Positions 12,702 to 61,390 are shown, numbered from the stretch's first letter. The stretch: DNA of 64,000 nucleotides from an uncultured Candidatus Saccharibacteria bacterium (GCA_964598205.1 CAZRBB010000004.1:2324-66323), one strand, 5' to 3'. The notes: generated by a model not told the origin, from the letters alone. Program-made: numbers and translations.

Positions 12702-12810
12702 TACGCATTTGGCACATTTCTTCGTTAAAACCAAACTTACTCGCTCACCGTAACCTAATTACGCTTCGCTCGTTCGTTTGGTTTTGCCTTGAACTGCGCT
12801 CAAATGCGTA
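12702..12810. repeat. Family-B repeat element, copy B1
   Basis: Core CATTTCTTCGTTAAAACC..TACTCGCTCACCGTAAC..AATTACGCTTCGCTCGTTCG..GGTTTTGCCTTGAACTG. Flanked by the copy-specific inverted repeat TACGCATTTG / CAAATGCGTA. Coordinates approximate. Confidence 0.65.
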
Positions 12811-12844
12811 AATCCTGGTTTGTTCTCTATATTAAATTTATTTT

Positions 12845-12871
12845 TTAGCACTCGTCCTTGACGAGTGCTAA
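12845..12871 (+). promoter_or_regulatory. CIRCE operator (HrcA-binding heat-shock element) upstream of groEL
   Basis: Perfect match to the consensus TTAGCACTC-N9-GAGTGCTAA: TTAGCACTCGTCCTTGACGAGTGCTAA. It lies about 55 bp upstream of the groEL start. Confidence 0.85.
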
Positions 12872-12924
12872 ATTTTTTTGCTACATTTTTAGTGCAATAA
12901 TTTATTAATCAGTTAAATAAAAAA

Positions 12925-14574
12925 ATGGCTAAGCAGATAAAATTCGACGAGAAGGCTAGGCAGTTATTGCTTTCTGGAATCAATAAGGTTGCCAACACTG
13001 TAAAAGTGACTTTGGGGCCAAAAGGTCGGAATGTGGTTTTAGACAAAGGCTTTGGTTCTCCAACAATCACTAACGATGGAGTAACGATTGCTAAAGAAAT
13101 AGAACTAGAAGACAAATTTGAAAACATTGGTGCGGAATTGGTTAAGGAAGTAGCTAGCAAAACAGGGGACAATGCTGGAGACGGTACTACCACGGCTACT
13201 CTTTTGGCACAAAAAATTACCACCGAAGGAATGAAGAATATTGCTGCCGGTGCTAATCCAATAGAAGTGCGCCGGGGAATTAGCAAAGGAGTAAAAGCGG
13301 TGGTGGCGGAAATTAAGAGAATGGCCAAGCCGGTAAAGAATCGAGAAGAAAAAGCGCAGGTGGCCACTATTTCTGCTCAAGATGCAGAAGTGGGACAAAT
13401 GATTGCCGAAGCAATGGAAGAAGTAGGTAACGATGGTGTAATTACAGTTGAAGAATCGCAAACTTTTGGTTTGGAAAAAGAATTGGTAGAAGGAATGCAA
13501 TTTGATAAAGGCTATGTTTCTCCTTACATGGTGACCAACACGGAAAACATGGAGGCGGAAATGGAAAAGCCAGTTCTTTTAATTACCGACAAAAAGATTT
13601 CTTCTGTAGAAGAGATCTTACCTTTGTTGGAAAAAGTAACTCAGTCTGGTCGAAAGGAAATTGTTTTAATTGCTGAAGATATTGAAGGGCAAGCCTTGGC
13701 GACTTTGGTGGTAAATAAATTGAGAGGAATCTTTTCTGCATTGGCAGTGAAGGCTCCTGGATTTGGAGACAACCGCAAGGAAATGCTAGAAGACATTGCT
13801 GTTTTGACCGGCGGTACTGTGATTTCTGAGGATCGGGGAATGAAATTAGAAAATGTGGAGCTGGGCATGCTCGGTACTTGCAGTCGGGTAGTAGCCACTA
13901 AGGAAAATACAACGATTGTTGGTGGTGATGGTAAAAAGACAATGATCAATGATCGAATTGCCAATATTAAGAAGCAAATCACAGAAAGTGATTCTGATTT
14001 TGACCGAGAAAAACTAGAAGAAAGATTGGCCAAGTTGGCTGGTGGTGTAGCGATTATTAAAGTAGGAGCGGCTACCGAAGTAGAACAAAAAGAAAAACAA
14101 CATCGAGTAGAAGATGCGCTAGAAGCTACTAAGGCGGCGGTGGTAGAAGGAATTGTCCCTGGTGGAGGCGTAGCTTTGATTAGAGCGATTAAGGCATTGG
14201 AAAAGGTAGAGGTAGTTGGAGACGAAAAGATTGGACTAGATATTTTAATGAGATCTTTAGGAGAACCATTAAGACAAATTGCGGTTAATGGTGGCAAAGA
14301 AGGTTCAGTGATTGTGGAAAAGGTAATGGGATTAAAAGGAAATATTGGTTACAACGCCGCTACCGATAAATACGAAGATTTAGTAGTTGCAGGAGTAGTT
14401 GATCCAGCTAAAGTTACTCGTTGCGCAGTAGAAAATGCAGCTTCGGTGGCTTCCATGGTTCTAACAACAGAAGCAGTGGTTACCGATTTGCCAGCAAAGA
14501 AAGATGGTGGCAGTTGTAGTTCTTGTTCCCCAGGCATGGATGGAGGAATGGGAATGGGTGGAGGAATGATGTAA
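12925..14574 (+). CDS. groL: Chaperonin GroEL (Cpn60)
   Basis: [39 protein letters not shown] ... C-terminal [10 protein letters not shown] tail. Confidence 0.97.
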
Positions 14575-14602
14575 TTTTTTCCAAGAAAGTTTTAGGATAA
14601 AA

Positions 14603-14631
14603 AAGAAGCCGGTAAAACGGCTTCTTTTTTT
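14603..14631 (+). terminator. Rho-independent terminator after groEL
   Basis: Hairpin AGAAGCCGG-TAAAA-CCGGCTTCT followed by a T7 run. Confidence 0.6.
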
Positions 14632-58885: not shown

Positions 58886-58894
58886 TTTTTTAAA

Positions 58895-59965
58895 ATGAGC
58901 GTTCAAAGTCGCGGGAAAATGCAAAATCTTTTAGAATCGGTGGTTCAGCAGGGAGCTTCTGATCTTCATTTATCTATAGGTAAGCCACCTATTCTTCGAA
59001 TTGATGGAGCGCTAGTTCCTCTTTCAGATAAAAATACTCTTAATGAAAAAGAAGTCACAGAGCTGATTACTTCGGCAATGACAGAAAGTCAAAAGGCGCG
59101 ATTACAAAACGATTTAAGCATAGACTTTTCTTTTAGTTTGGCGGGTAAGGCGCGATTTCGGGCTAATGTTTTTTACCAGTTGGGAGTTTTGAGTGGTGCT
59201 TACCGTTTAATAGATTCCAGAATAAGAACGATCGACGAGCTGGGTTTACCGCCGATTATTCACGAGTTTGGTAAGCTAAAACAAGGACTGGTGCTGTTTG
59301 TGGGGCCAACTGGTCACGGTAAATCAACTTCTATGGCGGCCCTGATCGATGAAATAAATCATAATCGCACGGAGCATATAGTAACCATAGAAGATCCAAT
59401 AGAATATGTTTATCAGCAAGATTTATGCGTTGTTAATCAAAGAGAGGTTGGTCACGATGTGCTTTCTTTTGAAAGTGGCTTACGATCGGCGTTCCGAGAA
59501 GATATTGATGTGATTCTTTTGGGAGAAATGCGAGATTTGGAAACCATTAGCACGGCGATTACGGCGGCAGAAACAGGACATCTTATTTTTTCTACACTGC
59601 ATACTAACGATTCTTGGCAAACAATAGACCGGATTATAGATGTTTTTCCTGGGAATCAGCAAAATCAAATTCGATCACAGTTGGCGAGCGTTCTAGAAGG
59701 TATTGTTTCTCAAAGATTAATTTCTAAAACTGGTGGTGGGCGGGTTCCGGCAGTGGAGGTGCTTTTAAGAAACGACGCAGTAGAAAATCTGATTCGCGAA
59801 GGGCAAACTCACCAAATTACTAATGTTTTAGAAACAAGCACCGAACAGGGAATGCAATCTATTAATCGTTCCTTGGCGGAATTGGTGCAAAAAGGAGAAA
59901 TAAGCATTGACGATGCCGAATCTTATGCTTCCGATAGAGATATTTTTCATATGTTGATTAAATAA
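58895..59965 (+). CDS. pilT: Twitching-motility retraction ATPase PilT
   Basis: Walker A VGPTGHGKSTS. PilT-size (356 aa) with no GSPII_N domain. AIRNLIRE-like motif as AVENLIRE. Confidence 0.9.
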   Translation: MSVQSRGKMQNLLESVVQQGASDLHLSIGKPPILRIDGALVPLSDKNTLNEKEVTELITSAMTESQKARLQNDLSIDFSFSLAGKARFRANVFYQLGVLSGAYRLIDSRIRTIDELGLPPIIHEFGKLKQGLVLFVGPTGHGKSTSMAALIDEINHNRTEHIVTIEDPIEYVYQQDLCVVNQREVGHDVLSFESGLRSAFREDIDVILLGEMRDLETISTAITAAETGHLIFSTLHTNDSWQTIDRIIDVFPGNQQNQIRSQLASVLEGIVSQRLISKTGGGRVPAVEVLLRNDAVENLIREGQTHQITNVLETSTEQGMQSINRSLAELVQKGEISIDDAESYASDRDIFHMLIK

Positions 59966-59996
59966 AAGATTTATAGGGGTAAGTCTTAAAATAAAT

Positions 59997-61208
59997 ATGG
60001 ATTTTAAATACAAGGCAAAAAATTTACAAGGAGGTGTGCAGACTGGAGTGGTAAAGGCGGCTGATCAAACTGCCGCCATGGATGTTTTGGCAAAAAACAA
60101 TCTGGATGTTTTTATGATAGAGCCGGTTCGCTTGATTGGTGGAATTTCTTTGATTTTATCTAATTTTTTCAATAGGATTTCTCCTAAGGATTTGGTTATT
60201 TTTTCTAGACAACTTTCTGTGCTTATTAAATCTAATGTGTCGGTGATCAAGTCTCTAAAGATTATTTCCGAACAAACAGAAAGTGGTGGTATGAAAAATG
60301 TTTGCGTGCAAATGGCTACGGCGGTAGAAGAAGGTAAATCGCTAGCAGATGCGGTGGCGCTTTTCCCAAAGCAGTTTGATAATTTTTTTGCAAGTGTTAT
60401 TCGGAGTGGGGAAACTTCTGGGAATTTAGAGCATTCGCTAATTTATTTGGCTGACCATGTGGAGCGAGCTTACGAACTAAAAAGAAAAATCAAAGGAGCA
60501 ATGATGTATCCAGTGGCTATTTTGACGGCTTTTTGCGGAATTTTCTTTTTTTTAATGGTAAAGGTTTTGCCACAGTTAACAGACATTTTGACTGAATCTG
60601 GGGTTGCGTTGCCTTGGACTACTAAGTTGATTATTTGGTTGTCTGACTTTATGAAGGCTCACTGGGTAATTACCCTTGCCATGATTCTTATAACAATAGG
60701 TACATTCTTTTATTACAGTCGAACAAAGGCTGGGAAAAAGCAGTTCGACACTTTAATCTTTAGAATACCGGTTATTGGAACTGTAATTCGGTTTGCGTAT
60801 ATTGCACGGTTTGCTGAGAATTTACGGGTGCTTTTAACGGAGGGTATTTCTCTTGTAAAGGCACTAGATATTATGGCGGCTGTAATGGATAATGAGGTTT
60901 ATCGGATTCTGTTATTGCGGATTATGAAAAATGTGGAGAAGGGAAAGAGCATGACAGAGGCGATGCTGGAAGATGAACAGGCCTTTCCTAGAATGGTTTC
61001 GCAAATGATTAAGATTGGAGAAGATTCAGGAAGAACAACGGAAATTTTAGAAAATATTGAAAATTTTTACACCAAGGAAGTAAACAATATGACAGAAAAC
61101 ATGACTACTTTAATTGAACCGCTTTTAATTGTTATATTGGGATTAGGTACTGGTATTTTGGTGGTTGCAATTATTATGCCGATATATGACATGGCGGGAG
61201 CAATGTAG
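59997..61208 (+). CDS. pilC: Type IV pilus platform protein PilC (second copy)
   Basis: Duplicated GspF domains. 403 aa. Confidence 0.9.
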   Translation: MDFKYKAKNLQGGVQTGVVKAADQTAAMDVLAKNNLDVFMIEPVRLIGGISLILSNFFNRISPKDLVIFSRQLSVLIKSNVSVIKSLKIISEQTESGGMKNVCVQMATAVEEGKSLADAVALFPKQFDNFFASVIRSGETSGNLEHSLIYLADHVERAYELKRKIKGAMMYPVAILTAFCGIFFFLMVKVLPQLTDILTESGVALPWTTKLIIWLSDFMKAHWVITLAMILITIGTFFYYSRTKAGKKQFDTLIFRIPVIGTVIRFAYIARFAENLRVLLTEGISLVKALDIMAAVMDNEVYRILLLRIMKNVEKGKSMTEAMLEDEQAFPRMVSQMIKIGEDSGRTTEILENIENFYTKEVNNMTENMTTLIEPLLIVILGLGTGILVVAIIMPIYDMAGAM

Positions 61209-61212
61209 TATG

Positions 61213-61390
61213 ATAAAGGTCACGGTTAAATGGGTGAATGGATTTTTCGATTGGCGCATTTCATCGTTAAAACCTCCGTCGCTTGCTCTGCGTAACGCCA
61301 TTACGCTTCGCTCGCTTACTCGGTTTTGCCTCGAACTGCATTAAAAATAAAGGTCACGGTTAAATGGGTGAATGGATTTTTCGATTGGCG
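61213..61390. repeat. Family-B element copy B3 (61257-61346) bracketed by a perfect 44-bp direct repeat
   Basis: ATAAAGGTCACGGTTAAATGGGTGAATGGATTTTTCGATTGGCG occurs at 61213-61256 and again at 61347-61390. The B core CATTTCATCGTTAAAACC...GGTTTTGCCTCGAACTG lies between them. Confidence 0.75.

Follow-up and report, generated by a model that had tools for sequence, protein, structure and literature searches.

A 64,000-nucleotide stretch of DNA from an uncultured Candidatus Saccharibacteria bacterium (GCA_964598205.1, CAZRBB010000004.1:2324-66323; from now on referred to as the window) carries a dispersed repeat, here called Family B, which is probably a lineage-specific, non-autonomous palindromic repeat resembling miniature inverted-repeat transposable elements (MITEs) and REPINs, with the whole hairpin as the unit of descent and constrained as a folded single strand. 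This interpretation is built on direct observation of the family and its boundaries, the empty sites of relatives, the homology of the hairpin arms, covariation, strand asymmetry, position and orientation. Family B is a new family, though of an otherwise fairly ordinary small repeat type, and does not overturn current understanding.

A repeat search of the window identified one 87-nt family at 12710-12796, 24313-24399 (87%) and 61252-61338 (77%), and three sub-motifs (ATTACGCTTCGCTCG, TCGTTAAAACC and GGTTTTGCCTTGAACTG) each match exactly three copies, all on the + strand, while shuffles yield 0.2-2.4 matches. These three sites had been proposed in a first-pass annotation made from the sequence alone, whose picture of a family scattered over several sites, its conserved core bordered by complementary sequence, is borne out, including the inverted flanks of copies 1 and 2. 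The unit is longer than the roughly 90 bp given there, however: the homologous unit spans ~118-122 nt, all three window copies lie on the + strand, and core identity among copies is 76-88%. Copies c1-c3 are numbered by window position, c4 lies past the window end and c5 on a second contig. The window GroEL (12925-14574) is found on the 198-kb contig JGI 3300045131|Ga0485169_0000005, with identical DNA in further samples of the project, and c4 was found with a covariance model (R1) run over flanks fetched via the window proteins. The fifth copy was reached through a protein search with the translated open frame of the core, which led to a spurious 58-aa open reading frame (ORF; P0121). It follows an LTD-domain gene, and its locus is also present on a second contig, of 49 kb, from the window's sample (L035) and probably belongs to the same genome as the window. 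This copy is 143 nt long, with an extra 23-nt GC hairpin inserted at the apex, and has lost its right terminus. P0121 (L015:2357-2533) is annotated by JGI as a 58-aa 'hypothetical protein' but is a spurious ORF reading through the Family B copy; compared with four other assemblies of this locus, L015 differs by one single-nucleotide polymorphism in the apical stem (ATCACG vs ATTACG).

The census thus stands at five copies in ~98 kb of the source organism (81.9 kb of contig Ga0485169_0000005 and 16 kb of contig Ga0485169_0000289), with homologous arms in four of them; a count of three is correct for the window, whereas the organism carries at least five. Scans of GTDB representative genomes, JGI metagenome contigs and IMG/VR, using three patterns in total, gave chance hits only and no true Family B match, the source metagenome lying outside those collections. 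BLAST against plasmids and phages did not return a Family B match either. The Rfam check suggested by the first-pass annotation found no matching family: only four tRNAs in the window exceed the gathering threshold, and nothing overlaps c1 at E-values up to 10. Two arm-like sequences at 17916 and 55610 (3 mismatches each) were judged to be chance matches on inspection, and an apparent inverted partial left end upstream of c3 was discarded, with 102 of 2000 shuffles scoring equally high (p about 0.05).

Table 1. Positions of Family B copies, the copy-3 direct repeats and other features (window coordinates unless a locus is named).
Feature	Position	Strand	Distance from upstream stop codon	Description
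c1	12697-12815	+	4 nt after fer4	Full element, GGATC...AATCC; covariance model R2 137 bits; outer left arm GGATCTACGCATT
c1 core	12714-12796	+		
c1 outer stem	12697-12713 / 12797-12815	+		
c2	24300-24417	+	3 nt after pilM	Full element, perfect 20-bp outer stem AAATCTTGTACAATGACACA / TGTGTCATTGTACAAGATTT; R2 123 bits
c3	61239-61356	+	31 nt after pilC	Full element, degenerate outer stem; R2 105 bits; outer left arm GGATTTTTCGATT
c3 left arm	61240-61256			GGATTTTTCGATTGGCG
c3 core	61256-61338			
c3 right arm				GCATTAAAAATAAAGGTCA, reaches into second 44-mer
c4	L011:14213-14334		16 nt after ligA	Between ligA and tRNA-Pro, 2.2 kb past window end; outer left arm GGACTTATACGGT
c5			Abuts TAG of LTD gene	Outer left arm GGACTTGCATGAT
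First direct repeat	61213-61267	+		Last 10 nt of element (ATAAAGGTCA), 17-nt spacer, 17-nt left arm, first 11 core nt
Second direct repeat	61347-61401	+		Final 28 nt (61374-61401) form a truncated second element: left arm and TATTTCTTCGG
CIRCE operator (HrcA operator)	12845-12871	+		TTAGCACTC-N9-GAGTGCTAA, between c1 and groEL; not part of the element
Family A	14650-14817, 19211-19378, 20756-20923, 30048-30277, 36354-36521, 40300-40467, 43834-44075	+		
Family A	11400-11680, 31290-31530	-		
D11	23086-23159, 31340-31413, 43955-44028, about 11470-11550			
AATTACGAATTTTGAATTTCGAATTT motif	11389, 16015, 19198, 20746, 23010, 32098, 34376, 38532, 41064, 63509			

By RNA folding, each copy is one long imperfect hairpin. 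The predicted free energy of c1 is -42.9 kcal/mol for the + strand and -58.8 kcal/mol for the - strand (z-scores -8 and -11), and the + strands of c1 and c2 range from -43 to -45 kcal/mol (z -8 to -9.5). The apex consists of a CGTAA/TTACG stem and a C-NNN-A loop in which NNN is free. Below the apex lies a ladder with a 4-nt period, two Watson-Crick pairs alternating with two pyrimidine-pyrimidine oppositions and both arms being TCGCTC-like, followed by an AAAACC/GGTTTT helix, an internal loop, TTC/GAA and CA/TG pairs and finally a basal stem of ~20 bp; the conserved centre includes TTAAAACC/GGTTTT. Homology continues past the core originally delimited, through TTGRGCAC/GYGCYCAA, and reaches the very ends in four copies (GGAYYT...TTGRGCAC). 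The arms pair inward from the termini as terminal inverted repeats, with the terminal 13 bp variable in sequence. The heptamer AAATCCT, said to stand on both sides of c1, does occur at 12684 and 12810, but the right occurrence is the element terminus plus a T, which excludes it as one half of a 7-bp target-site duplication. A peptide-coding role was also rejected: the only frame open through c1-c3, which stays open in c5 as well (HISSLKP..RN.ITLRS..FCLEL), lacks a start codon and is interrupted by a frameshift in c4.

The outer arms of c1, c3, c4 and c5 are identical at 6-9 of the outer 13 positions of the left arm, and the differences among c1, c4 and c5 amount to 15 transitions and 2 transversions, with complementary changes on the right arms. 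The left arm of c5 is homologous to that of c4, though the loci are unrelated. In the R2 alignment, 15 of 41 pairs have changed on both sides, including 11 of the 20 pairs of the basal helix, and 87% of cells are paired; none of 500 shuffles reaches any of these measures, and sliding the partners by 1-3 columns gives 2-4 pairs. The simplest reading of these sequences is that the stem belongs to the element and evolves fast while staying paired. The first-pass annotation had left two origins open for the flanks, which it regarded as locus-specific. A core that travels with a variable stem is favoured by the arm homology, the transition-dominated divergence, the compensated right-arm changes and the likeness between the arms of c5 and c4. 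Insertion into the loops of pre-existing hairpins is disfavoured for the copies with homologous arms; only the outer 13 bp of c2 are unrelated to the others, and for this copy alone arm replacement or insertion into a palindrome is plausible.

The two strands of the element differ markedly in their folding. Among non-Watson-Crick oppositions on the + strand, the ratio of pyrimidine-pyrimidine to purine-purine is 11:0 in c1, 13:0 in c2 and 13:1 in c4; since the hairpin mismatches are nearly all pyrimidine-pyrimidine on this strand, the bottom strand folds better. There, the mismatches become tandem G-A/A-G and A-A oppositions, a GCGAAGC motif is also present, and the predicted stability is higher by 9-16 kcal/mol as RNA and 5-8 kcal/mol as DNA. 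Counting G-U versus A-C oppositions as a strand test gives 13 vs 17 overall, and the five outer-stem mismatches of c1 and c4 are without exception A-C on the + strand, the numbers being small. The five copies all point the same way with respect to both the gene upstream and the strongly positive GC skew, which is compatible with an orientation set by transcription or by replication. The GC skew ranges from +0.16 to +0.28 across the window, is 0.08 in the first 8 kb and turns negative farther upstream (L032). Gene orientation diverges around 2-6 kb, with a C5 DNA methylase encoded nearby at 3087-4064, and a replication origin may be located near the window start.

Every copy begins 0-40 nt past the stop codon of a co-oriented gene. 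This is the common denominator of the five sites, and the regulatory setting that had been suggested, with groEL and pilin leaders, is not supported. The gene preceding c1 encodes a 72-aa 4Fe-4S ferredoxin with a TAG stop, while the pilM stop preceding c2 is a TAG at 24294-24296 and pilN starts with the ATG at 24450. The CIRCE operator downstream of c1 is conserved in the relatives L009, L010 and L042 and is overlapped by a promoter-like sequence (TTGACG-18-TACATT); c1 lies upstream of both and therefore outside the groEL leader. No outward promoter or intrinsic terminator was found at any copy in a consensus scan, and c5 is followed by a separate canonical terminator. The copies were accordingly rejected as intrinsic terminators (a short GC-rich hairpin with a U-tract), c2 and c3 also lying inside operons. 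As c2 and c3 are situated between genes of pilus operons, gene order implies that read-through would be needed for the expression of pilN and possibly pilA. The window contains two type IV pilus gene clusters (16114-30002 and 53797-63544) encoding pilB/pilC/pilM/pilN-like components and several N-methyl pilins, and Family B is present in both. A TA dinucleotide adjoins five of the eight assessable ends, namely both ends of c2 and c4 and the left end of c5, which hints at TA-target integration by analogy with Correia, RUP and IS630-type elements. The 98 kb contain no gene for an obvious partner, just those for an Xer-type integrase (4361-5179) and a small GIY-YIG protein (63662-63949).

The best GroEL relatives are 80-84% identical and labelled Patescibacteria or Candidatus Moranbacteria. 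No Family B copy was found in ~74 kb of four relatives with 81-84% identical GroEL (L009, L010, L039/L041 and L042), two of which, L010 (a 1.2-Mb contig) and L039, are syntenic with the window. The fer4-groEL spacer measures 104 nt in L010 vs 232 nt here and keeps CIRCE but lacks both core and stem. Between pilM and pilN, L010 has 39 nt and L039 has 15 nt, compared with 153 nt here, and neither relative has a hairpin there. In L042, an ordinary intrinsic terminator hairpin follows fer4 at the position of c1. The comparison of orthologous loci proposed in the first-pass annotation thus shows the relatives' spacers to be free of the element, and we conclude that it was gained in this lineage.

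The third copy is associated with a local duplication. The 44-mer at 61213-61256 is identical to that at 61347-61390, and similarity continues over 9 of the next 11 nt. The first-pass annotation was right about this exact 44-bp direct repeat and about a recent event, but the repeat is not an insertion signature. Like the other copies, c3 bears an outer stem, a degenerate one with 4 non-standard pairs and a right arm extending 10 nt into the second 44-mer. The 44-mer contains the element's own left arm and right terminus, which rules out a target-site duplication and indicates a local one. The period of 134 nt equals one element plus spacer, and the repeat spans 1.4 periods. An assembly artefact can be dismissed since the same duplication is present in an independent assembly from another sample (L012). 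The 11-nt sequence TATTTCTTCGG after the second 44-mer agrees better with the family consensus than does its equivalent in c3 (CATTTCATCG), and at least two events are therefore needed; one example order would be two adjacent copies followed by truncation or conversion. A possible pilA promoter, proposed from sequence only, comprises TTGGCG (61385-61390), a 17-nt spacer and TATAAA (61408-61413), and was missed by the consensus scan because the last base of its -10 element is A. Its -35 element would derive from the truncated left arm, and if this is true, the pilin promoter may owe its existence or its position to the duplication.

We hypothesize that Family B entered a Moranbacteria-like genome after the split from the nearest sequenced relatives and settled in short spacers directly behind stop codons, in one orientation only. 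The outer ~20-bp stem is conserved in pairing alone, with compensated transitions, which argues that the element is 'seen' as a folded single strand. This folded form could be single-stranded DNA (ssDNA) during mobilisation or replication, and/or RNA. As copies are located inside operons (pilM/pilN and pilC/pilA), the + strand would have to be co-transcribed; it would then form a hairpin of 40-45 kcal/mol, probably acting as a processing or stability determinant by analogy with REP, ERIC and Correia elements. That the element is mobile, passes through a single-stranded intermediate, is co-transcribed and affects mRNA is what we infer from the observations above.

Several points weigh against this hypothesis. 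No clean target-site duplication was seen, TA is missing from both ends of c1 and the left end of c3, and the 98 kb examined encode neither an autonomous partner nor a transposase or RAYT. The better-folding strand is antisense to the flanking genes, which is awkward for a function as sense RNA. The relatives with empty sites are distant and their intergenic DNA is unalignable apart from CIRCE, so exact insertion points cannot be read from their spacers. Near-identical strains from five samples do not display any presence/absence polymorphism as a sign of active mobility. The covariation comes from five distinct sequences in an alignment fitted to the structure. Finally, the outer 13 bp of c2 are perfectly complementary but unrelated to those of other copies (2-4 of 13 positions identical, mostly transversions).

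This last property of c2 would be expected if the ~85-nt core alone were the mobile unit and entered palindromes already in place, at their loops or centres, much as IS1397 targets REP loops, with the outer stems being host DNA. The terminator hairpin of L042 at the position of c1 and the presence of other long perfect hairpins in this genome, including palindromes nested in the apices of a second repeat family (Family A, see below), also fit such a scenario. We nevertheless consider it quite improbable: four loci (those of c1, c3, c4 and c5) share homologous outer arms with transition-dominated differences, c5 retains an unpaired left arm homologous to that of c4, no hairpin exists at pilM-pilN in L010 and L039 or at fer4-groEL in L010, and the supposed pre-insertion palindromes would have had neither a loop nor a U-tract. 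An even smaller probability is assigned to Family B being a recombination site read as a folded single strand by a tyrosine recombinase (integron attC or Xer type) and marking the 3' ends of cassette genes, an idea that would have to be considered given that the hairpin is imperfect, has conserved unpaired bases and a variable apex and immediately follows co-oriented ORFs, and given the Xer-like integrase gene in the window. However, the neighbours of the copies are syntenic genes with housekeeping and pilus functions that relatives lacking the element also possess, neither a cassette array nor intI is present, the box-like motifs GTTAAAA and TTTTGCC occur in reverse order compared with the attC R'' (RYYYAAC) and R' (GTTRRRY) boxes, and the integrase is a generic XerC/D-type protein encoded 8-60 kb away; altogether, this makes an attC-like role very hard to credit.

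The strong stem covariation, with compensated changes dominated by transitions as is typical of RNA helices, might alternatively reflect a functional structured RNA, either a cis element of 3' untranslated or intercistronic regions or a small RNA, that was duplicated to operons and selected for processing, stability or stoichiometry of pilus and chaperonin transcripts. The co-orientation of all five copies 0-40 nt past the upstream gene, the two copies inside pilus operons and the sequence conservation of the internal loops agree with this proposal. Set against it are the absence of the element from the orthologous spacers of all four relatives, host genes without a common theme (ferredoxin, pilM, pilC, ligA and LTD protein), the lack of an own promoter, an own terminator and an Rfam match, and the fact that the sense strand is the weaker folder with a core predicted to be largely open, so that we regard an RNA module as unlikely. 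A riboswitch or leader was rejected for want of an Rfam match. Similarly unlikely, in our estimation, is that Family B, and perhaps Family A, represents a new strand-specific hairpin replicator of the Candidate Phyla Radiation (CPR) which is neither REP/RAYT-like nor an insertion sequence (IS)-derived MITE. Here, an enzyme would read a 'purine zipper' core on folded ssDNA, formed by the tandem G-A/A-G oppositions every 4 nt on the bottom strand and the stable GCGAAGC motif, while the basal stem would merely have to pair. In a variant of this idea, the co-transcribed form could have been domesticated as an intercistronic processing signal setting the stoichiometry of pilus operons.

The interpretation as a MITE/REPIN-like repeat can be further assessed by comparison with known systems. 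Among the generic traits of MITEs, Family B shows a length below 300 bp, a lack of coding capacity, inverted repeats at its termini, several dispersed copies and orthologous sites that are empty in relatives. Bacterial MITEs that duplicate a TA target have been reviewed by Delihas (PMC2229807). Correia/NEMIS elements of Neisseria and RUP elements of Streptococcus pneumoniae are 100-160-bp non-coding MITEs with terminal inverted repeats and a long hairpin, are located in intergenic regions, are co-transcribed and duplicate a TA target. Family B is similar in size, hairpin and spacer position, and has TA at both ends of the best-preserved copies, c2 and c4, and at the left end of c5. It differs in that c1 and c3 lack TA, its termini are not conserved in sequence, one orientation is used throughout, and it contains neither an integration host factor site nor a promoter module and has no cognate IS in the 98 kb examined. 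The inverted repeats of MITEs are normally conserved because the transposase binds them. ERIC/IRU and REP/BIME sequences are imperfect palindromes in transcribed enterobacterial spacers, often 3' of genes, which affect mRNA stability and processing. Family B is likewise an imperfect palindrome in presumably transcribed spacers just 3' of genes but shares no sequence similarity with them and is confined to one CPR lineage; to our knowledge, its pyrimidine-pyrimidine ladder with a 4-nt period (G-A/A-G on the bottom strand) has no described counterpart in ERIC/REP families. Palindrome-associated elements (PATEs) derived from IS200/IS605, considered together with ssDNA transposition, carry separate subterminal hairpins at their left and right ends and have a conserved target of four or five nucleotides. 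Like Family B, they behave in a strand-specific manner, keep a single orientation with respect to replication, have imperfect hairpins in which unpaired bases are conserved, and lack a target-site duplication. The whole unit of Family B is, however, a single hairpin, with no TnpA or TnpB gene found nearby.

REPINs are REP doublets that form hairpins and are mobilised by RAYT transposases (Bertels & Rainey 2011, PMC3116915), and compensatory changes on both sides of the hairpin are common in them (PMC3116915). Family B is comparable as a dispersed extragenic hairpin of ~100 nt with compensatory changes, a presumed folded ssDNA form and no target-site duplication, being lineage-specific and vertically inherited. 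The ends of REPINs are highly conserved (REP 16- to 25-mers) with a variable middle, whereas the reverse is true for Family B, whose ends are the least conserved part. GTAG/CGTC tags belong to REP (PMC3733652), while Family B copies share no such tag on their 5' side. REP units measure 20-40 nt, and the accompanying RAYT is a Y1 transposase encoded by a single-copy gene, of which the 98 kb contain none. Family B also differs in copy density and in the phylum of its host. REPINs are the closest analogue in behaviour, and Correia/RUP MITEs the closest in size, position and possible TA flanks.

Further repeats are present in the same DNA. Family A is a branched hairpin repeat of ~140-170 nt with nine copies in both orientations, unlike Family B; similar to Family B, it has a conserved interior (TACGCTCG, GCTCGCTCC) and outer stems that differ among copies yet stay complementary. 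D11 is a 74-nt near-perfect palindrome found once solo and three times nested in Family A apices, and a different nested hairpin (30110-30215) occupies the Family A copy at 30048. This nesting reflects either the insertion of palindromes into the apices of hairpins in this genome or a family made up of long and short subfamilies. An AT-rich motif, AATTACGAATTTTGAATTTCGAATTT, occurs at at least 11 sites of ~30-70 nt each, mostly directly upstream of gene starts (pilB, pilM, gatB and others), and may be a promoter/UP-like module or another repeat family. Approximately 2.5 kb past the window end, a perfect hairpin of ~28 bp (AAAAAGACTCAGAGTATATATTTTAAAAGGAG...; L011:14503-14577) separates tRNA-Pro from the convergent infB and is probably a bidirectional terminator; the genome therefore holds long unique hairpins too.

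CPR/Patescibacteria genomes are small and usually called streamlined, yet here several families of 70-170-nt hairpin repeats fill the short spacers between genes. Family B inflates three such spacers, could be mistaken in annotation for groEL or pilA leaders or regulators, and can seed spurious small ORFs, P0121 having already reached public protein databases. What sets it apart is its CPR host, the clean covariation and a strand-asymmetric mismatch ladder conserved in sequence, which are signs of constraint on a folded single strand. If a mobilising enzyme or an effect on RNA were identified, Family B would provide an entry point to DNA mobility or post-transcriptional control in unculturable organisms.

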